DNA of 64,000 nt from Dehalococcoidia bacterium (GCA_965222125.1 CBDCTC010000001.1:16731-80730); one strand, 5' to 3'; numbered from the stretch's first letter, positions 28,021-40,351 are shown. The notes: generated by a model not told the origin, from the letters alone. Made by a program: numbers and translations.

Positions 28021-28890
28021 ATGACCGACGGAATGACGACGAATGTACTTGGACGCACCGGACTGGACGTGACGAGGCTGGGCTACGGCGCTATGGCGCT
28101 GCGGGAGTCGTCGGGCGACGTCTCCGAGCGCGTGCTCAACGCTGTGCTGGACGCCGGCATCACCTTCATAGACACGTCGAACGACTACGGGCACAGCGAG
28201 GAGATGATCGGCAAGTACGTGGCGGGACGCCGGTCCGAGTACTACCTCGCCACCAAGTGCGGCTGCCCTCCGGCCGGCGGCGATCACGTGTGGACGCGGG
28301 AGAACCTGTTCCGCGGGCTGCACGAGAGCCTGGAACGCCTGAAGACGGACTACGTGGACATAATGCAGCTCCACAACGCGAATGTGGACGACGTCGATCG
28401 CGGCGGCCTGGTCGACGCGCTGGAGGAGATGCGTGAGCAGGGCAAGGTGCGGTGGATAGGCGCGTCGGCCGTGCTGCCCTCGATCTCGACGTTCGTCGAG
28501 CGCGGGGCGTTCGCCGAGTACCAGATACCGTACTCGGCGCTGGACCGCGCTCACGAGGAAGTCATCGGCGACGCCGCGCGGTCAGGCGCGGGGACGGTGA
28601 TTCGCGGCGGTGTGCAGCAGGGCGAGCCCGGTTTCAGCAGCCAGGGACGTCCCGAGCGGTGGACGTCGTTCGAGGCGGCCGGACTGGACGAGCTCAGAGG
28701 GTCGGGCGAGAGCCGCACGGCGTTCATGCTGCGCTACACGCTGGCACATCCCGACCTGCACACGACGATCGTCGGAACGCAGAACGTGGACCACCTGCGG
28801 GAGAACGTGGAGGCCGCCGAACACGGCCCGCTGCCTCCGGACACGTACGCGGAGGCCAAGCGCCGGCTGCAGGCCGCCGAAGGGGGCTAG
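28021..28890 (+). CDS. Aldo/keto reductase
   Basis: LGYGAM, FIDTSNDYGHSEE, YLATKCG, SLERLKTDYVDIMQLH, GKVRWIG. Confidence 0.92.
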   Translation: MTDGMTTNVLGRTGLDVTRLGYGAMALRESSGDVSERVLNAVLDAGITFIDTSNDYGHSEEMIGKYVAGRRSEYYLATKCGCPPAGGDHVWTRENLFRGLHESLERLKTDYVDIMQLHNANVDDVDRGGLVDALEEMREQGKVRWIGASAVLPSISTFVERGAFAEYQIPYSALDRAHEEVIGDAARSGAGTVIRGGVQQGEPGFSSQGRPERWTSFEAAGLDELRGSGESRTAFMLRYTLAHPDLHTTIVGTQNVDHLRENVEAAEHGPLPPDTYAEAKRRLQAAEGG

Positions 28891-29062: not shown

Positions 29063-30151
29063 CTAGGGCCGCTTTGCGACTGCGCCGTCGGGGGCGATGC
29101 TCTCGACGCCCCGGTGGGCGTCGGTGAACGCGATCACCTTGACGGTGGCGTCGATGCGCTGCCCGGGCTCGACGTTCAGCGCGGTGCCGTTCTCGATAGC
29201 GCTGCCCAGCCCTTCGTTGGCGAAGCTGGTGAAGGGCTCCAGGCCCACGTTGTACGTCCGCCCGTACCACGGGTAGCCGTACCCGCCGCCGAGCGACTGC
29301 CAGTACCAGAGAAACTTGAACACGTCCTTCGGGAAGACGACCCCGAGACCGACTCCGGTGCTCAGGTTGGTCAGACCGTACCAGCCCTCCGGCATGTCGG
29401 TGATGTAGGACATGTCGTAGGCCTCTATGCTGGGCGGCGGTACCTTGCTCAGGTCGATACGGTTGCCGTCCTTGTCCTCGGTCCACGGCCAGCGGCCACG
29501 GAAGTCCGGCTTCAGGCGCGCGTTGGTGTCCCCAATATCCGGGTGGTTGAGCAGCGTGCCGCCGGGCAGGTCGATGATGCTGTCGCCGCTGAGAGTCGGG
29601 GCGCCGATGGCGATGTGCTCGCCCCAGACGCACGGGACGGTCTCGCGGCCCTCGTTCACGAGAAATTCGTCCACCTCTAACATCGGCGAGCCGGACTTCA
29701 GAGTCAGCGTCTTCTCGAAGTAGAAGGGAAGACGGACGGTGCGGATCGAGCAGCGGATGCTCACCTTGTCCGGAGCGTCGTCGACGATCCGGCAGTCCCA
29801 CGGCGCCATGCTGGCCTCGGCGTGCAGGCCAAGGTCGGCGCCCCCGTAGGCGGACGGAAAGCCGCCGGCGGGGAATACCGTCTGCCACCCGCCCTCGTAG
29901 AAGTCCATCCACAGGCCCAGCGGCGACCCGGTCGTGGGGACGAACTTCGATGGGTCGCGCACCCCCCAGGGCGAGCGCCAGAGAAAGTCGACGTCGGTCG
30001 GCTTGTGGACCAGCTCGAGGATGTCGGCGCCCTTGTCGGCGAGCACTACGACGCGCAGCAGCTCGTTCTCCATCACCACGGTCTTCAGCCCGCGGTAGGT
30101 CCACGCGTCGGAGACGCGGCACCCGTGGTTGCGTTCGTTCTGATAGTGCAT
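29063..30151 (-). CDS. Aldose-1-epimerase/DUF4432-like (galactose mutarotase fold) protein
   Basis: MENELLRVVVLADKGADI, YEGGWQTVFP, GLHAE, WGEHIA, VGLEPFTS. Confidence 0.75.
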   Translation of the reverse strand: MHYQNERNHGCRVSDAWTYRGLKTVVMENELLRVVVLADKGADILELVHKPTDVDFLWRSPWGVRDPSKFVPTTGSPLGLWMDFYEGGWQTVFPAGGFPSAYGGADLGLHAEASMAPWDCRIVDDAPDKVSIRCSIRTVRLPFYFEKTLTLKSGSPMLEVDEFLVNEGRETVPCVWGEHIAIGAPTLSGDSIIDLPGGTLLNHPDIGDTNARLKPDFRGRWPWTEDKDGNRIDLSKVPPPSIEAYDMSYITDMPEGWYGLTNLSTGVGLGVVFPKDVFKFLWYWQSLGGGYGYPWYGRTYNVGLEPFTSFANEGLGSAIENGTALNVEPGQRIDATVKVIAFTDAHRGVESIAPDGAVAKRP

Positions 30152-30174
30152 CGGCGGCCCTCCCCGCGCTTGCG

Positions 30175-30984
30175 TCAGTGCTCGGCGCCGGCCCCGCCTG
30201 CCCATGCGCCGACGGCCATGTAGCCGCCGTCGACGCAGATGTACTCGCCTGTCATGAACGAGGCCTTTTCGCTGGCGAGGAACAGCACGACGTTGGCGAT
30301 GTCCTGGCCGGTGCCGACCCGCCCGATGGGATGCGATCGACCCCACTCCTGAACAGTCGCATCGATGTCCCCACCCTCCACGGCGGCGGCGGTGCGCACC
30401 ATGTTGGTGTCTATGGTGCCGGGGCATACCGCGAGCACGCGGATGTTCTCCTCCGCGTAGTCCAGGGCCATCTGCCTGGTCAGAGACAGGATGCCGCCCT
30501 TGCTGGCGGCGTAGGCGGGCACCAGCTTCATCGACTGCAGGCCCTGGACGCTGGCGGTGTTGACGATCACGCCGCCGCCCTTCTTTCTGATCTCAGGAAT
30601 CGCGTACTTGGACATCAGAAACGCGCTCTTGAGGTTGACGTCCAGGATGCGGTCCCACAGCTCCTCGGACGTGTTCTCGATGTTGTGGTACGAGTCCGGG
30701 CTCTGGATGCCGACGTTGTTGAACAGGATGTCAACGCCGCCGTAGGCCGCCACCGTCTCCGCGACGACGCGCTTGCACTCGGTCGCGCGGCCGACGTCCG
30801 CCTCGACCAGGATGCACTCGCCGCCGTCGGCCTCAATCCGCGATACGGCCGCCTGGCCGGCCTCCTCGTTGACGTCGGCTATGACGACCCGGGCGCCCTC
30901 GAGGGCGAACTCGGCGGCCGTGGCCGAGCCGATGCCGAGCGCGCCGCCGGTAATGATCACTGTCTTGCCGTCGAAGGTGCCCAT
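30175..30984 (-). CDS. Short-chain dehydrogenase/reductase
   Basis: TGGALGIG, DILFNNVG, NTASVQG, YAASK, AVCPGTIDT. Confidence 0.92.
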   Translation of the reverse strand: MGTFDGKTVIITGGALGIGSATAAEFALEGARVVIADVNEEAGQAAVSRIEADGGECILVEADVGRATECKRVVAETVAAYGGVDILFNNVGIQSPDSYHNIENTSEELWDRILDVNLKSAFLMSKYAIPEIRKKGGGVIVNTASVQGLQSMKLVPAYAASKGGILSLTRQMALDYAEENIRVLAVCPGTIDTNMVRTAAAVEGGDIDATVQEWGRSHPIGRVGTGQDIANVVLFLASEKASFMTGEYICVDGGYMAVGAWAGGAGAEH

Positions 30985-31133
30985 CGGTCTTCTCCCCTCA
31001 GCGTCGAAGGTAGGAGGTGTGTCGAAGTGGGGCCAGTATATTTGCGGCCCCATGGAGCGTCAACCGGCGGAGGCGATGCGATCACGGCGTGGCGAAGGGC
31101 TGAGGACAGCTAAGTTGGTACACTGCGGGCGCT

Positions 31134-31387
31134 GTGCTGAAAGCAGTCATCTTTGACTTGTACGAGACGCTGATAACCCAGTTCGACCCCAACTGGAAGC
31201 CGCCGAAGATGTCCCTGGCGGACCGGCTGGGCATCGAGGAGGAGGCCTTCCGGCGCCACTGGGGACCGCTGGCCACCAATTGGCGTAAGGGCCCGCCCCT
31301 ACCGGTACGAGGAGGTGCTCGAGGCGGTATGCAAGTCCGCCGGCCGTGCGCCGGACCGACGGGCGATCGCCGAGCTTGCCGCGCGCT
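31134..31387 (+). pseudogene. HAD-family hydrolase, N-terminal part (frameshift near 31295; cut by insertion)
   Basis: MLKAVIFDLYETL (motif I), then +1 frame YEEVLEAVCK...IAELAAR ending at CGCT 31384-31387. Confidence 0.8.
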
Positions 31388-31469
31388 TCCCCTCGATCCG
31401 GCCCGCCTCGTAGGCCTCGCAGGTCGCGCAGATCGGCCGCGGGCAGCCCGCCGGGTCGTGCTCCGTCAT
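31388..31469 (-). pseudogene. Small Cys-containing element gene truncated at the left junction
   Basis: MTEHDPAGCPRPICATCEAYEAGRIEGK; ATG overlaps the TGA of the upstream ORF (ATGA). Confidence 0.45.
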
Positions 31470-31618
31470 CGGCCCGCCGCGGCCAAGGCTCGGGCCTTGC
31501 GGTCACGCCTCGACGCACGCACGCGGCAGCGGCTCGAGCACGTCCGACGCGACCGGCGAACGTGCGTCATGTAATGGCCGCAGTATGCGCAGCGCAGCTG
31601 TGGTTTCGCTGTGTCCAT
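31466..31618 (-). CDS. Small Cys-rich (zinc-binding-like) basic protein
   Basis: MDTAKPQLRCAYCGHYMTHVRRSRRTCSSRCRVRASR (CxxC...CSxxC). Confidence 0.55.
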   Translation of the reverse strand: MDTAKPQLRCAYCGHYMTHVRRSRRTCSSRCRVRASRRDRKARALAAAGR

Positions 31619-31929
31619 GCGTCTTAGTGTATCACAGTCGGCGCGTTTAGACCGGGGGGTAGGGTGATTTGTGAACGGGGGATTGTTGTCGACCATGTGG
31701 CCTTGTGCACGCGCATTTTCCGGCCAGAAAACTTGGGGCGGTCGCCTTCGACGTAGGCGTCTCGCAGTGGCTTGCGCTTACAGCGGTCGGTCTGTACGCT
31801 CCCCAATGTCACAGCAACCCAATTGCCGGTTTCGGATGGGAGCGTCATGTTCCCTCGTTGATGGTTGCCGGGCTGGGTTGCTGTGACAAGCTGACCATCC
31901 CAAATCTGTCAACGAGGGAACACCAACCA

Positions 31930-33171
31930 ATGGCACGTATCACGCTCATACTCGGATTGCTTGTCGGGCTTGCTATCCTGGCACTGGCTGGTTGCGCTGG
32001 CCCGCAAGGCGACGCCGGGCCGCAGGGTCAACCGGGTCCGCAGGGCGAACTAGGGCCGCAGGGCGACGCAGGGCCGCAGGGTCAACCAGGGCCGCAGGGC
32101 GACGCAGGGCCGCAGGGTCAACCAGGGCCGCAGGGCGACGCAGGCCCGCAGGGCCAACCAGGGCCGCAGGGCGACGCAGGCCCGCAGGGCCAACCAGGGC
32201 CGCAGGGCGACGCAGGGCCACAGGGCCAACCAGGGCCGCAGGGCGACGCAGGGCCACAGGGCGACGCCGGGCCGCAGGGTCAACCAGGGCCGCGGGGCGA
32301 AGTAGGCCCGCAAGGCGACGCCGGGCCGCAGGGCGAACCAGGCCCTACACCCACGCCGTACCCGACACCTGCGCCGCTGCCCACGGCGACACCTGCGCCG
32401 CTGCCCACGGCAACACCTGCGCCGCTGCCCACGGCAACACCTGCGCCGCTGCCCAGTTCGTGGAACGACCTTCACGACAGGCTACGGTTGGCCGGAACTG
32501 TAGTGGAAGTTTGCGCTAGCGGGAGCCTCTTTGCGGGATGCGGCACAGGATGGGTTTATGAAGAGGGATGGGTAATCACCGCCGCGCACGTGCTGGCCGG
32601 AGCACCATCTGCTCAAGTCGAAGTCCACATTAGCAGTCCTTCAGGGGGTCAGTGTAGCGGCAGCAGTTGCGAACGCGGTAGCCTCAACTGGTACAAGAGC
32701 TATGCCGCTCAATACATGGGCTCGGACAAGTACCGCGACATAGCAGCGGTCAAGTTGTTTGATACCGGCGGCTTACACCCTGCGCCGCTGCCCAGGCGGG
32801 ATATCGACTCTTTGGGAGCGGACGAAAAGCTTGTGCTCATAGGTCAGAGCGGAGGGCTGCCAGCTGAAGCGAAGGTCGGCGTGCTCTCTATTGTGCGGAC
32901 GATTGCCCACGCTGAAGAAGAGGTGCACGGAGCAATAACGGTCATTGAGCTTGCCATTAACACCGTTGCGGGTGACTCAGGCGGGGCCTACGTTGACAAG
33001 TACGGGAGTGTCGTGGGAATCGTACAGGGCCGTTTGCCAGGCGTTAGGAACCCCGGTAGGTCCGTAGGGTTGCCGATATCGGAGATAGAAAAGGTCTGGG
33101 AACGGCTGAAGGCCGGGGAGCAGCTGAACGACGACCTAAAGCACTGGATGCACTATGAGTTTGACCAATGA
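31930..33171 (+). CDS. Lipoprotein: collagen-like stalk, Pro/Thr linker and trypsin-like (S1) serine protease
   Basis: Lipobox LAGC; 39 uninterrupted Gly-X-Y triplets; (TPAPLPTA)n; catalytic triad ITAAHV / YRDIAAV / GDSGG. Confidence 0.88.
31999..32457 (+). repeat. Coding tandem repeats: 36-bp collagen unit (31999-32349) and 24-bp PAPLPTAT unit (~32366-32457)
   Basis: GGGCCGCAGGGCGACGCAGGGCCGCAGGGTCAACCA and variants; CACCTGCGCCGCTGCCCACGGC(G/A)A repeats. Confidence 0.92.
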
Positions 33172-33424
33172 CTACGACCGCCTTAGCTAAGGAGCGAGCT
33201 AAGTAACTTTCTTCGGGGGTAGCCATTCGGTCTAGGCCGGATTCGGAGCGATCCCAAATTCAGCCAGGCCCAGGTCGTCGTCGTCGATCTTGAGGCCGTT
33301 GAGGTAGTCCAGGCCGACCAGGGCGGCTGGGCCAGCCATGTTGTTCTTGCCTGGGCCGTCTGGCGGCCAGCGGAGGGTCTTGCGGGGGAAGCTGGCGGGC
33401 CGCCCCACGCGGCCCCGCCCGCTT

Positions 33425-33457
33425 CCCCCCCCCTACCTTGTAGGGTAGGGGTAGGGG
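33425..33457. other. C-run/hairpin and TAGGG repeats downstream of the Rep-like gene (candidate origin element)
   Basis: CCCCTACC-TTGTAG-GGTAGGGG inverted repeat and three TAGGG units. Confidence 0.35.
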
Positions 33458-33496
33458 AGCCCGATTCCGTATCTACAGACGGCCGAAACGGCGCAG

Positions 33497-34883
33497 CTAA
33501 TCTAGTCCTGGGGGGAGAATCCGGTAACCGTCCGGCGTGTGGTCGATCACCACGTCGCCCGCGTCGGCCAGCGCTCCGAGATGGCCCGGCGCGCGTTCGC
33601 GCGCATCCTTCCGCGCCGGGCCGCCTGAGAGCGGATAGAACAGGTCGGCCAGCGCGTCGGGGTCGTACACGCGGTACCGCGCCGGATCGGGGTTGCGCAG
33701 CCAAACGCGACCACGCTTCACGGGGAAGCTGGTTTGACCTGGGTTGTACCAGTCGTAGGCAAGGCCGATCAGCGCGTTGTAGGCCGCCCCAGACTGCGCG
33801 CCCCACTGCTGAAGTGAGTCCGGGATGATCGGCCCCGCGTTGCTCGCGCCGGGGGGGAGCCGTACGGAGATGGTCAAGTCCGCGTCCAGGTCGTGCGGTA
33901 TGCCCAGCACGGAGACCACGCGCCACATGACGCGCCCGTGACCCTCGTCGACGGGGAAACGCGCGTCCATGCCGTCCAGCGCTACGGCGGCGTCCTCCAC
34001 GTCACGGGCGATCCGGGGCGTGGAGATGGTCTTGTAGCTGGCGGGGTACAGCCGCCGCCGAATCTCGCGCAGCGACACGCGCATATCAACGCCGCCTGGG
34101 CCGCCGCGTTCCAGCTGCGGGGCCAGTAGGACGGCCTCGACGAACAGTCGCAAGGCCAACGGCGCGCCATGTCCTTGCCTGCGCGCATCGATGCCGCGTC
34201 CCAGGCCGTACAGCGCCAGCGGGAACGCGGGGCCTGTCCGGGGCCGTTCGAAGCCGGGTAGCCACAGCTGCCCGCCCGCGTCTTGGCCCTGCCGCAGACG
34301 CCGGCATGAAGAACCGGCGCGTGCGCGGATCGCCGCGGCCCGCCATCCCAAGACCGGCCGGTAGGATGCGGCCGTCCCGCTGATTCGGCGCGGCCCTAAG
34401 CTGCACACGCTGCCACGCTCGAATCAGTGGCGGAACCGGGTTCAGCGGGTAGTCGGCGGGCTGAGGGTCGGGCCTGAATTCCCGCCACAGCTGCGCAATG
34501 TCAATCAGGTTGTCGGCCACTGTCGGCCGCCGCGGCCAGCGGCAATAGGCGGCGCGCGTTGCGGTAGCGTCGACAGTGGCCGGGCTGTCCGACATTCTGT
34601 ATTTGGCCAGTACCGGCCCGACCGATGGGTTGATAGGCATCCCAAGGCCAACGAAGCCGGAAGCGGCCGATTCGGAGTAGGTGTAGCGGCCCTGTATCCA
34701 GTCAAGCAACCCCTCGAACCGCTGCCACGCTTCGGCCAGTCCGTCGGCCATCCCGTCCGCGTACAGGTCGGCGGCCAGTGTCTCCCACGTGAGAACGGCG
34801 AAATCAGGGCCGGACGCCCCGTCGTTGTCGTCCGCCCACAGCCAGCGCGACCAGGCGTCCAGGTACTCGTCCGTCAATCTCAT
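33497..34883 (-). pseudogene. Large hypothetical, putative replication-initiator-like protein with frameshift (~34285-34300)
   Basis: MRLTDEYLDAW...RILPAGLGM...FFMPASA continues in the +1 frame as GQLWLPGF...PLALY...GAPLALRLFVEAVL...AYNALIGLAYDW...GYRILPPGLD. Start coupled (ATGA) to the upstream helicase-like fragment. Function inferred from position only. Confidence 0.45.
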
Positions 34884-35143
34884 CGTGGAAATGGCCCCTG
34901 CGGCGCGTCGGCGGCCCACGTGGGCGCGGGGGTGACTGACAACACGCCGCCGTTGTCCTGGGCCAGCCATACCTTCGCGGGCTGCTGCCCGTAGTTCGTT
35001 TTCTCGCACGTCAAGACCAGGGCGTCCCGCTGATTCGGCGCGGCCTTGCCGTTCGGCGTCGGGCCTTTCTCGGTTTCGTGAGCCAGCGTCCAAACGGCGC
35101 GATGGGCCGCCAGCCAGTCCGTCGAGCCGCTGAAAGGAACGCT
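34880..35143 (-). pseudogene. 3' fragment of an AAA_25/RepA-like replicative helicase, cut at the right junction
   Basis: PFSGSTDWLAAHRAVWTL...LVLTCEKTNYG resembles the RepA-type helicase C-terminal motifs (GSxAWxxxxR; KxNYG). Confidence 0.5.
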
Positions 35144-35622
35144 GCGAGAGCAGGCTGCCCCCGTTCGAGAACGTCGAGTCTCCGATCGTCGAGCTGGTCG
35201 ACGCCCTTCGATCACGCGGGTTGAGGCTCGGCGTCGTGACGAACGCCGCGAGCGGCGACGTGGAGCCATGGTCCCGGTGCCGGCTGGCGCCGCGATTCGG
35301 TGCGTTCATCGCCTCCTACCGTGTCGGGATGCTCAAGCCCGACACGCGAATCTACGAGTGCTGCTTGGAGGCGTTGGGGGTGACTGCCGCGGAGGCGTCT
35401 TTGTTGGAGACTCCGGATACGAGGCGATGAACGAGCTGGACGGCGCCATGCGCGTCGGCCTGAGGCCGTTCTGGGCCACGTGGTTCCTGGACCGGTGGCG
35501 GCCCGGCACGCGGCGGATGCCCGGGCGAGAGCCTCCATTTCCCGCCTGCGCGCCCCACGGACCTGCTGGACGTGGTCCTCTGCGAACTGGACAACCAGTT
35601 AACCCTGGGGGTGTTTTCGTGA
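35144..35622 (+). pseudogene. HAD-family hydrolase, C-terminal part (further frameshifts near 35400 and ~35545)
   Basis: LGVVTNA (motif II), VGMLKPDTRIY (motif III), FVGDS (motif IV) in a shifted frame. Confidence 0.8.
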
Positions 35623-35903
35623 ACGGGCAAAATCGCGAATAGCGACCTGAGTTGTTATCGGCTCCGCGAATAAGGCCTGTTGCGGGCCGTGGTTGTTTGC
35701 GATAACAGGCAAAACCGATAATAGCGGCCTGGGCTATTATCGCCTCCGCGAACAAGGATTGCTACGGGCTACGCTTGTTTGCGATAATGGGCTGAAACGA
35801 TAATAACGGTCTGGGCTATTATCACCTCCGCGAACAAGGGCTGCTACGGGCTGCGCTTGTTTTCGTGAAGGGGCTTCAACGATAATAACGGTCTGGGCTA
35901 TTC
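35610..35903. repeat. Non-coding tandem array, ~3.5 copies of an 82-bp double-hairpin unit
   Basis: CTCCGCGAA at 35662, 35744, 35826 (period 82). Per unit: CGATAATAGC-N7-GCTATTATCG and GCGAACAAG-N17-CTTGTTTGC. Confidence 0.88.
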
Positions 35904-35915
35904 TCATCGCCGCTA

Positions 35916-37088
35916 ATGAGAGACAACATGGTTTCCGCGTCTGAACGAGCACGCCAGCCTCACGGTCGTATCGTGGACTGCCTCGGCGGCTACCGGGCCT
36001 ATGTTCCGGCGCCGCTCCCGCCGCCGATGACGTGGAACGCCAGCCTCACCTTCGAGTTGTCATCCGCCGACCGTGCCATCGGGAGGCTCGCGGGCGAAGG
36101 ACGGCGTTTGCCCAATCCCCACCTGCTTATCCGGCCCTTCGTGCGCAAGGAGGCGGTGCAGTCCAGCCGGATCGAGGGAACACAGGCGACCCTCGGGGAG
36201 CTGCTCGCCGACGAAGCCGGGGCCGCCGTCGAGCGAAGCCCCTCCGACCTGAGGGAGGTGGGCAACTACGTCGTCGCACTGGAGTACGGCCTGGGACGCC
36301 TGGAGTCGCTGCCCGCGTCGCTGCGCCTGGTGCGCGAAATGCACGACCTCCTGATGCGGGACGTTCGGGGCGACGCGGCCGCCCCCGGGGAGTTTCGGCG
36401 CAGCCAGAACTGGATCGGGTTTCCCGGGTCGACGCTGAGCCAGGCCACTTACGTCCCGCCGCCGCCGGCGGAGCTCATGGGCTGTCTGGACGCTTGGGAG
36501 CGGTTCCTGCATGACGAGACCCTGCCGCCGCTGGTGCACGCCGCGGTCACCCATTCCCAGTTCGAGGCGATTCATCCGTTCCTCGACGGCAATGGGAGGA
36601 TTGGACGCTTGCTCATCACGCTTCTGCTGGTCCAGCGGGACATCATCCCCTCGCCGCTGCTCTATCTCAGCTCCTACTTCGAGGCCACGCGTCAGGAGTA
36701 CTACGCGCGCCTTCTCGGCGTCACGGAGCGAGGGGAATGGGAGGAGTGGCTGGCCTACTTCCTGAGAGGCGTCGCCCTGCAGGCCCGGGACGCCGTGGAC
36801 AGGATACAGCGCATGGACGATCTGCTCTCTGACTGGAGACTGCGGCTGTCCACAGGTTCGTCTAGCGCGTCCGAAAGGGTGCTCGATCTGCTTGCCGAGA
36901 ACCCCTTCTGCACGGTGCGCGGCCTGGCGGACCGGCTGGGTGTGGCGTTCACGACGGCCCAGCGCGCCATCGGCCGCCTGGAGGAGGAGGGCTTCGTCGC
37001 ACTCGTTGGGGAAGCGCGGCGCAATCGGGTATATTGCGCGCGAGCCATTCTCGACGTGCTGGAACAGCCTCTCCCCCGCGCGGGCTAG
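35916..37088 (+). CDS. Fic-family protein (Fic_N + Fic + C-terminal wHTH)
   Basis: HPFLDGNGRIGR active-site motif; N-terminal inhibitory motif SSRIEG. Confidence 0.93.
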   Translation: MRDNMVSASERARQPHGRIVDCLGGYRAYVPAPLPPPMTWNASLTFELSSADRAIGRLAGEGRRLPNPHLLIRPFVRKEAVQSSRIEGTQATLGELLADEAGAAVERSPSDLREVGNYVVALEYGLGRLESLPASLRLVREMHDLLMRDVRGDAAAPGEFRRSQNWIGFPGSTLSQATYVPPPPAELMGCLDAWERFLHDETLPPLVHAAVTHSQFEAIHPFLDGNGRIGRLLITLLLVQRDIIPSPLLYLSSYFEATRQEYYARLLGVTERGEWEEWLAYFLRGVALQARDAVDRIQRMDDLLSDWRLRLSTGSSSASERVLDLLAENPFCTVRGLADRLGVAFTTAQRAIGRLEEEGFVALVGEARRNRVYCARAILDVLEQPLPRAG

Positions 37089-38627: not shown

Positions 38628-40351
38628 CCCGAATCCACCGATGGACATGGATGGACGGCGTGAGGACAGTGGAAGAGGAGTGAGGGAGTTACAGGGGCGA
38701 TGATCCGGGCTCGAATTCGGGTAGACGGGAGGTTGGCGGGGGGTCTGCAGGCGCTTTTGGGGGCGCCAATGGCGGTCTGCGATGGGCGCTGTGGGACAAG
38801 ATGAGGACAGAGGACGCGGCAAGAGGCGCTCGCGGACCAGGGTGGCGCGAGTTGGCGGGGACGTTCAGTTGGCCTGATGGCGGGTCAGTGGCAAACGGGC
38901 GCCGTCAGGTCGGGAGTGGAATGGCTCGCAATCGAGCCAGGGCGCGAGTGAACTGGGTTTCCCAGGGCCAGCCCTGTGGCAGATGCAAAGTGAGGCGGCG
39001 GGCCGAGCGGGTGAGCCGTCCGGCCAGGGAGAAGAAGCGCCGCCGGAGGGTCCTGGTGGTCACCACCCCCTCGCCCAGACCGATGCGGGCTGTCCAGCGG
39101 GCCAGGTTGTGGGCCATCACCTGGACCGCCAGCCAGGCGGCGTTGGCGGCGAAGCGGCCCGAGGGGAGATGGTTGAGTCCGACGCCGTACTTCAGGTCTC
39201 GGATGGCATTCTCGATCTCGGCGTGGCGGCGGTGGTCGGCCTCCAGTTCCAGGGTCTCCCCGTCCCGGTCGGTGATGAAGCCGTGATAGCTGTAGGTGGC
39301 GAAGAGGGCCAGTTGGGAACCGGGCGTGGGCTTCACCCGCCGCACGATGAGCCGTACCGGCGCGGCGTCGGGCTCACCCTGGAAGGGGGTGTAGGTGATC
39401 TCGGCCACATCGGCGGCGCCGTCCATCCAGTATGGGATGGGCGTCCAGTCCGCCTCGGGTATGGCCTCGATCAGGTTCCGCAGGCTTTTGTGCTGCCGGA
39501 TGGTGATGGAGAAGCGCACGTCCAGCTTGCGGCAGACGACGACCAGGGCGTGGGTGTAGAAGCCGCTGTCGGCCCGCACCGTGAGTTGTCCCCTGGCCCC
39601 GCCGTAGCGCACCCGCCCCACCGTTTCCCGCAGGAAGTGGGCGGCGCCGCGGGCGGTGTTGGCGCGGCCCTCACGCAGCCGGGCCATCAGCACGTCGCCG
39701 GTTCCGGCGGCAATGGCCAGCAGCGGGTGATAGCCCCGCTTGCCGGTATAGCCGTGGTGGCGGGCGCCCTCCTTGGCCAGTCCGTAGGTCTCGCAGATCG
39801 TCGAATCAAGGTCGATGGTGAACGGTGCGTCGCTGGGTCCGGCCCCAGCCGCCCAGGCCTGGGCCAGCAGCTCCCGGCTCACCCGGTCCAGTTGGCGGAC
39901 ATGGCCCCACCGGAAACTGCGCAGGAAGGTGCCCAGGGTGGAGGGCGCCTTGACCGTGCCGCCCAGGGTGCGGGCTGTCCCCCCGGTGCGCAACACATCG
40001 GCGTCGTCAATACAGTCGCCGCCAGCCAGCGCAGACGCAACCAGGGTCATCATCTTGTCGCCCGTGTTGGCCCGGCCCGGCGCATTGCCCAGGTCGAGGC
40101 ACTGCTGGACGAGTTGGGGCAGGCCGAGGCGCAGGGCGAGGGTGGCCGGAAGGAGCAGCCCGGCATTGGCCACCAGGCGGTGGTCGTCGAAGGCGATACG
40201 GATGCGGTCGGGGTGGTGGCGTGGTAGCATCTATTGGGTGCTCCTTTTCTGGGGTGGGTTTCGTGTTTCAAAACCATTATCCCAGATTCATGGGGGCACC
40301 CTCTCGCTTCTTCAAGGGCTGTCCCCAAGGCCCTCCTTCGGTGGATTCGGG
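38628..40351 (-). mobile_element. IS1380-family element type A, complete copy (1,724 bp)
   Basis: TIRs CCCGAATCCACCGA / TCGGTGGATTCGGG. No clean TSD (flanks TAAG / CTAA). Confidence 0.88.
38905..40230 (-). CDS. IS1380-family DDE transposase (type A)
   Basis: IDLDST, YHPLLA, LREGRANTA, VRADSGFY, HAEIENAIRDLK, LPSGRFAANAAW. Confidence 0.92.
   Translation of the reverse strand: MLPRHHPDRIRIAFDDHRLVANAGLLLPATLALRLGLPQLVQQCLDLGNAPGRANTGDKMMTLVASALAGGDCIDDADVLRTGGTARTLGGTVKAPSTLGTFLRSFRWGHVRQLDRVSRELLAQAWAAGAGPSDAPFTIDLDSTICETYGLAKEGARHHGYTGKRGYHPLLAIAAGTGDVLMARLREGRANTARGAAHFLRETVGRVRYGGARGQLTVRADSGFYTHALVVVCRKLDVRFSITIRQHKSLRNLIEAIPEADWTPIPYWMDGAADVAEITYTPFQGEPDAAPVRLIVRRVKPTPGSQLALFATYSYHGFITDRDGETLELEADHRRHAEIENAIRDLKYGVGLNHLPSGRFAANAAWLAVQVMAHNLARWTARIGLGEGVVTTRTLRRRFFSLAGRLTRSARRLTLHLPQGWPWETQFTRALARLRAIPLPT

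Follow-up and report, generated by a model that had tools for sequence, protein, structure and literature searches.

Capture of heterologous DNA at an I-SceI chromosomal break via non-homologous end joining (NHEJ) was described in Sinorhizobium meliloti, where the experimenters supplied both the I-SceI break and, as the fragment, a resistance cassette, and where genetics showed that the event depends on ku and ligD (Dupuy, Sauviac and Bruand 2019, PMC6379672). At the scars of I-SceI breaks in Streptomyces ambofaciens, insertions ranging from 30 bp to 18.8 kb were found, with microhomologies marked (Hoff et al. 2018, PMC5869714). In eukaryotes, organelle, retroelement and extrachromosomal DNA is captured at breaks, nuclear mitochondrial DNA segments (NUMTs) and Ty1 cDNA being examples given through the references cited in the S. 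meliloti paper (refs 21-26 in PMC6379672). Natural bacterial examples at base resolution, with both a donor and an empty site, are few. Here we describe a HAD hydrolase gene (positions 31134 to 35622) in a 64,000-nt stretch of a Dehalococcoidia bacterium genome (GCA_965222125.1, CBDCTC010000001.1:16731-80730; hereafter the window, from whose first nucleotide positions are counted) that is interrupted by a 3,755-bp piece of a small replicon, probably captured at a break by end joining. The case is best read as a well-resolved natural example of a known event and not as a new mechanism.

The locus resembles the S. meliloti system in that a piece with neither homology nor mobility functions lies in one break with small losses at the ends, in a host encoding both Ku and LigD, so that genes were transferred without homology. 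In contrast to that system the event is natural, both its break and its pathway are inferred, and a native small replicon acted as donor. With S. ambofaciens, a high-GC bacterium with NHEJ genes, it shares an insertion at the point of repair and, if the provisional overlaps hold, microhomology; the inserts of S. ambofaciens, however, come from its own chromosome, whereas the donor here is of an extrachromosomal type and brought a foreign, apparently functional gene. As in the eukaryotic cases covered by the cited references, filler DNA of a co-resident replicon would have patched a break with short or no microhomology, although eukaryotes use Ku70/80 and Lig4 and many cases are known from them. 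Finally, the insert shares a trio of replication genes (primase, AAA_25 helicase and Rep-like), in the same order, with integrative islands that carry a tyrosine integrase and AlpA (e.g. L026). Those islands are complete and have their own integrase, whereas the piece in the window has no integrase and no primase, and its helicase is truncated.

In order to find empty sites, the read-through HAD protein was used as query against 60 related genomes. Uninterrupted orthologues were found in three genomes of the same genus (G003, 93% aa; G004, 83%; G002, 77%), as the first-pass annotation of the window had proposed to check. The protein of the closest congener, G003, is a Pfam PF00702 HAD hydrolase, and the DNA of its locus (L009) is collinear with positions 29639-31380 and 35136-36996 of the window, with an SDR gene on one side and a Fic gene on the other. 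The junctions were read from assembled sequence, both in the window and in L007, a different record that covers the same locus. The features at the interruption are listed below; L008 is the donor relative described further on.

31134..31380, + strand: 5' half of the HAD hydrolase pseudogene, aligning to the intact G003 orthologue (93% aa; PF00702) up to ..GAGCTTGCC
31378..31380, no strand: left junction, GCC common to the HAD flank and the element (3-nt overlap), in comparison with G003 and L008
31381..35135, no strand: captured insert (3,755 bp), a single contiguous arc from a replicon of the primase/AAA_25/Rep-like type
35136..35137, no strand: right junction, where HAD flank and element have GG in common (2-nt overlap); the CG of G003 is missing
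35136..35622, + strand: 3' half of the HAD pseudogene, from the three-way alignment with G003 and L007

The empty site of G003 reads GAGCTTGCC-CG-GGAACGCTACGAGAGC. In the window, GAGCTTGCC is followed by GCGCGCTTCCCC... on the left side, the last base of the HAD flank being 31380 (..GCTTGCC), and ...GCTGAAA is followed by GGAACGCTGCGAGAGC on the right side, where the HAD flank runs from 35136 on (GGAACGCTGCGAG). Since the flanks end at 31380 and resume at 35136 in this base-level comparison, the insert corresponds to 31381-35135 (3,755 bp) and the CGCT found to the right of it is native HAD sequence. The CG of the G003 site is gone from the window, a target loss of 2 nt; apart from these two nucleotides the HAD flanks abut and there is no target duplication, as judged against G003 and the empty sites of G002, G003 and G004. 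The HAD join guided by the orthologue is 2 nt short. The 3,755-bp unit is present in one copy in the 3.75-Mb genome and was not found in the four other species of the genus.

This comparison changes the boundaries that had first been proposed. The first-pass annotation had joined the insert through a 4-bp CGCT microhomology, and CGCT does occur at 31384-31387 and 35140-35143; excising 31388-35143 does restore an in-frame HAD peptide (...AIAELAARCESRLPPFENVE...VVTNA). The G003 empty site, however, places the boundaries 7-8 nt away on each side and rules out CGCT both as a target duplication and as a microhomology: the right copy belongs to the native HAD gene and the left one to insert codons (K-R-A-A, with K-N-A-A as the counterpart in the L008 homologue). 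CGCT occurs 29 times within the 4.6 kb surrounding the finding, so that the repeat says little by itself. The join at CGCT yields ELAAR-CESR, one residue shorter than the ELARERYESR of the orthologues (G003), and its in-frame product is evidently a coincidence.

The HAD gene needs three reading frames even after its halves have been joined and is thus a pseudogene. A +1 frameshift near 31298 in the 5' half is common to the window and L007, and so is the change of the stop codon from TGA to TTA; a -1 at ~35396 in the 3' half is present in the window only and absent in L007, and around 35543-35552 each of the two has its own set of indels. The extra frameshifts that had been noticed in both halves are real, and the event is indeed old relative to the split of L007 and the window strain: one frameshift and the 2-nt junction loss predate the split of the two strains, the other indels being private. 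Between the HAD stop and the Fic gene lies a tandem array of ~82-bp units (window 35610-35903), which BLAST also found, diverged, at the same place in G003, G004 and G002.

The insert itself contains the following features.

31388..31469, - strand: small Cys-rich gene interrupted at the left junction, of which the first 27 codons remain; its homologue in L008 encodes 123 aa
31466..31696, - strand: 76-aa Cys-rich zinc-ribbon-like open reading frame (ORF), from the ORF list, with a weak PHROG match only
31930..33171, + strand: intact 413-aa lipoprotein-type trypsin-like protease (Pfam Collagen, Trypsin_2, Trypsin)
33384..33429, no strand: GC-rich hairpin whose arms of 16 nt are 94% complementary; it lies downstream of the Rep-like gene in sequence that L008 also has
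33497..34883, - strand: Rep-like gene, broken by an extra C (+1) at 34295; intact in L007 (461 aa, P0001)
34880..35137, - strand: AAA_25 helicase truncated at the right junction, of which the last 85 codons remain; 82% aa to L008 residues 287-364

The closest relative of the donor was L008 (ENA ERZ25072854 ctg45672_3x_c), a contig of 10,016 bp recovered from the same metagenome as L007, the suffix of whose name appears to mark circularity. Its two ends agree with each other over 4,067 bp at 99.95% identity, and this terminal redundancy indicates a head-to-tail repeat with a period of 5,949 bp. The unit encodes an RHH-like protein of 126 aa, an HK97-type capsid protein, the 123-aa Cys-rich protein, a 358-aa primase-like protein (PHROG DNA-primase match; Toprim was called only in its L025 and L026 counterparts), a 364-aa AAA_25 helicase and a 452-aa Rep-like protein. 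No integrase and no recognisable terminase or portal were found in it (2 of its 6 ORFs had no family match), and L008 is an undescribed, possibly satellite-like mini-replicon that bears a capsid gene.

Positions 33374-35137 of the window match L008 3195-1456 with 88.6% identity over the shared 1.8 kb, and 31386-31414 match L008 5266-5238. The insert is a single arc of an L008-type circle that begins partway through the helicase, takes in the Rep-like gene and stops inside the Cys-rich gene. The other ~2.1 kb of the circle, comprising the remainder of the Cys-rich gene together with the primase and residues 1-286 of the helicase, were found nowhere in the genome, which thus lacks a complete replication module, its Rep-like gene being frameshifted at 34295 as well. 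The order primase, full-length AAA_25 and Rep-like was kept in the checked loci carrying these genes, some of which adjoin tyrosine integrases and some ParA; in the window the Rep-like gene also lies directly downstream of AAA_25. Because the helicase is full length in every intact relative (364-405 aa) and the gene order is constant, both ends of the insert are truncations.

No transposase or integrase domain was detected in the insert with Pfam and PHROGs, no terminal inverted repeats were found at its ends, and no att direct repeats or att-like repeat in the HAD gene were found either. None of four hallmarks of a transposon (transposase, terminal inverted repeats, target-site duplication and several copies) was observed, and with respect to an integrase island neither the insert nor L008 has an integrase, there are no att-like repeats and the element is truncated at both ends. 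The insert is therefore, as had been proposed from the window alone, a mid-element fragment without the means of inserting itself, and its plasmid- or satellite-like origin is borne out by the relatives with the trio and by the 5.95-kb head-to-tail replicon L008. The search for the parent element that had been suggested along with it succeeded in part, yielding this relative and not the direct parent.

The window Rep-like protein matches P0001 with E=1e-155 and 92% identity, and that of L008 at 79-93% aa. Beyond P0001 the family has ~40 more distant homologues; the named genomes that carry it are mostly Dehalococcoidia or SAR202 metagenome-assembled genomes, it occurs in 3 of the 61 genomes of the window's own order, and it had no match in IMG/VR, PLSDB or INPHARED. 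Searches for a Pfam or PHROG family and for a PDB sequence match were negative for this protein. Its fold model (pLDDT 77) showed a non-significant resemblance to winged-helix domains only, with no PDB match at E<=0.001 and no HUH fold, matches of the TraI type having a probability of 0.05 or less. A 26-nt direct repeat (25/26 identical) lies at window 34370-34395 in the Rep-like gene and at 35020-35045 in the AAA_25 C-terminus and encodes AAPNQRD at both sites; L008 holds the Rep-like copy only, and the repeat may be a small conversion patch.

At the opposite end of the insert, the Cys-rich gene is recognisable by its likeness to the L008 gene (C..C..YE.GRI.GK) and is also homologous to a gene upstream of the primase in L029. 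The stop of the zinc-ribbon-like ORF overlaps its start (ATGA), and neither a homologue search nor an exact-record search gave a match for that ORF. The zinc-ribbon-like ORF and the protease together occupy the place of the RHH and capsid genes of L008. The protease is laid out as a lipoprotein signal, collagen repeats, a Pro/Thr linker or stalk and a trypsin-like domain, and its lipobox (LAGC) and H/D/S motifs can be seen directly in the translation. Its gene is intact in the window, as first described, and has no close paralogue in the genome (the nearest is 32%); an intact, working-looking secreted or surface protease came with the insert. The closest homologues, on L021 (88%) and L022 (63%), lie in unrelated chromosomal contexts and come from the metagenome that also gave L007. 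Upstream of the protease gene, the divergent promoter region holds a perfect 15-nt inverted repeat (window 31807-31821 and 31874-31888), and window 31827-31926 is 82% conserved upstream of a protease homologue on L022.

On the left side, homology to the element comprises GCCGC (31378-31382) and then CTTCCCC onward. The three bases between the two blocks encode Arg in the window and Asn in L008, in a conserved GK-x-A-A context, indicating that GCGCGCT is coding sequence of the element and not filler and that the overlap with HAD is GCC. On the right side, homology to the element ends with AAAGG (35137) and HAD starts with GG (35136); no similarity beyond these 2 nt was found at this junction. 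The left overlap of ~3 nt and the right one of ~2 nt are provisional, since the donor side is taken from L008 (88.6%) and from protein conservation and not from the true parent. When the left HAD flank was compared with the uncaptured continuation of the element, 15/26 positions matched in register, against a random mean of 7.2 (P ~0.002 in a shuffle test selected once the data had been seen). The left junction also resembles positions 33415-33428 of the hairpin over 14 nt; this similarity was discarded, because by a rough estimate ~13 such pairs are expected by chance in 4 kb with this base composition.

Both junctions of L007 are base-identical to those of the window, including the 2-nt loss. 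The two records differ within the insert: the extra C at 34295 in the Rep-like gene is present in the window and not in L007, the protease is intact in the window and split into two called genes in L007, and an insertion sequence (IS) lies just upstream of the protease start in L007 and not in the window. The IS (L007:12954-14827), which encodes a 509-aa DDE_Tnp_1_4 transposase, is flanked on either side by ACCA and lies 4 nt upstream of the protease ATG; the corresponding site of the window (31925/31926) reads ACCAACCA with no IS, and further DDE_Tnp_1_4 transposase genes, one of them also of 509 aa, are found on L007. Identical junctions together with shared and private mutations are a pattern that mis-assembly does not explain, which confirms the event as real, and the insertion took place after the split from the G003-like species and before that of the window strain and L007.

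The genome encodes both proteins that had been suggested for checking, Ku (PF02735, 132 bits, its frame being open) and LigD, which is 899 aa long and has phosphoesterase (PE), ligase (LIG) and polymerase (POL, Prim-Pol) domains. The sequence of events that we consider probable begins with a double-strand break in the HAD gene within GCTTGCC/CG/GGAACGCT. The break would have been repaired without homology, with 3,755 bp from a small circular replicon, either resident or incoming, being joined between the chromosome ends. The donor would be a variant of the primase/AAA_25/Rep-like replicon family carrying the collagen-stalk protease, the target would have lost 2 nt, and each junction would have formed with a 2-3 nt overlap. 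The genome's own Ku/LigD NHEJ is the likeliest machinery; the insertion would have inactivated the HAD gene, and its decay followed. The locus fits the end-joining class in having one break point only, a target shortened by 2 nt, provisional overlaps of 2-3 nt, donor ends at arbitrary points and no mobility functions. Thus the end-joining capture first proposed holds as regards the fragment, its origin, its age and the repair genes, and fails as regards the CGCT join and the boundaries. The break point in G003 is at the centre of CCCGGG, the lost CG being the 5' overhang of a C^CGG cut. A restriction cut as the origin of the break was considered and set aside as speculation, since the genome avoids CCCGGG only mildly (observed/expected 0.72) and the donor ends have no CCGG.

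Several points weigh against capture by end joining as set out here. Dependence on Ku and LigD is not something that sequence alone can show. The patchy in-register similarity at the left junction fits copying primed by annealing at least as well as it fits blunt ligation. The direct parent of the insert was not found, so that the donor-side junction sequence comes from a relative of 88.6% identity. Finally, a nested second event is conceivable, as the middle 1.8 kb (zinc-ribbon-like ORF and protease) have no counterpart in L008.

The second of these points leads to an alternative that we regard as rather improbable, a templated insertion in which the resected left end annealed to an intact circle at a chance similarity, primed the synthesis of ~3.75 kb and was joined to the right end at GG. 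Such an event would resemble microhomology-mediated break-induced replication or synthesis-dependent microhomology-mediated end joining (MMEJ), and no fragment of the element would ever have existed. The 15/26 match of the left flank argues for it, as do the single collinear arc of the circle found in the insert and the polymerase domain of LigD. However, the similarity test was picked after viewing the data, nothing is shared past 2 nt at the right junction, and processive copying over 3.7 kb by bacterial end-joining polymerases is not established. Ligation of a fragment and microhomology-primed copying off the circle give the same product and are inseparable at this level, although the similarity on the left mildly favours copying.

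Integration of the whole element, by an integrase or a single crossover, followed by a ~2.1-kb deletion (3' part of the Cys-rich gene, primase and 5' part of the helicase) seems very unlikely. Distant relatives of the trio do lie in islands with tyrosine integrases and AlpA (L023, L026), and the missing arc is contiguous in the circle; nevertheless, the nearest relative, L008, has no integrase, the HAD gene has no att-like repeat, and the deletion would have had to stop exactly at the chromosome junction, sparing the HAD flanks to within 2 nt. Moreover, a single crossover would leave insert ends that are adjacent in the donor, and here they are 2.1 kb apart. A defined 3.76-kb mobile element making a 4-bp CGCT target duplication can hardly account for the locus: CGCT flanks the insert as it was first delimited, but its duplication would need ...GGGAACGCT in the left flank, where the empty site shows none, and there is no transposase or HUH domain, no inverted repeat and only one copy, with both ends inside genes. 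An assembly chimera, in which a plasmid contig was mis-joined into the chromosome, is scarcely credible, for although the genome is a metagenome assembly and a related free replicon is present in a related sample, L007 carries both junctions base for base while differing by an IS, private indels and substitution patches, the HAD halves bear decay mutations expected only in a long-dead gene, and a mis-join would not put both insert ends in one gene, 2 nt apart.

Leaving these alternatives and returning to the capture of a replicon piece by end joining, the comparison of the window with L007 also bears on what happened afterwards. The flanks and both insert ends show 0-2 differences per 200 nt and the decaying 3' half of HAD 3-5 per 200, whereas the interior tracts 32600-32799, 33200-34199 and 34400-34599 differ by 5-35%. 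Over 33240-34010, L007 sides with L008 against the window at ~100 sites and is 99-100% identical to L008 over 300 nt; over 32600-32800, it is the window that agrees with the protease allele of L021, and L007 that differs. These patterns suggest later recombination of the scar with related free elements and alleles. One caution is that L007 and L008 stem from a single assembly with 3x coverage, which makes a polishing artefact possible for the mosaic tracts. Another is that patches of 7-14% divergence between the window and L007 occur outside the insert as well, at 28400-28599 and 39400-39999 in otherwise near-identical sequence, and patchy recombination would seem to be general in the population. 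Tentatively, and with more doubt than confidence, we propose that the captured fragment is not an inert scar and that sequence exchange continues between it and the free form of the 5.9-kb capsid-encoding circle. If true, the scar would be a chromosomal homology anchor for an undescribed mini-replicon and would pin that replicon to this lineage as its host.

It has been proposed that genes can pass between distant bacteria through homology-independent capture of foreign DNA at chromosome breaks, a proposal resting mainly on laboratory constructs. The present locus offers a natural case at base level with four supports, namely the empty site in sister species, a relative of the donor, the truncation points and the repair genes of the host. 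It assigns a host lineage to a small capsid-encoding replicon family that was not found in the PLSDB, INPHARED and IMG/VR searches, and the event destroyed one gene while it delivered an intact gene for a secreted or surface protease.

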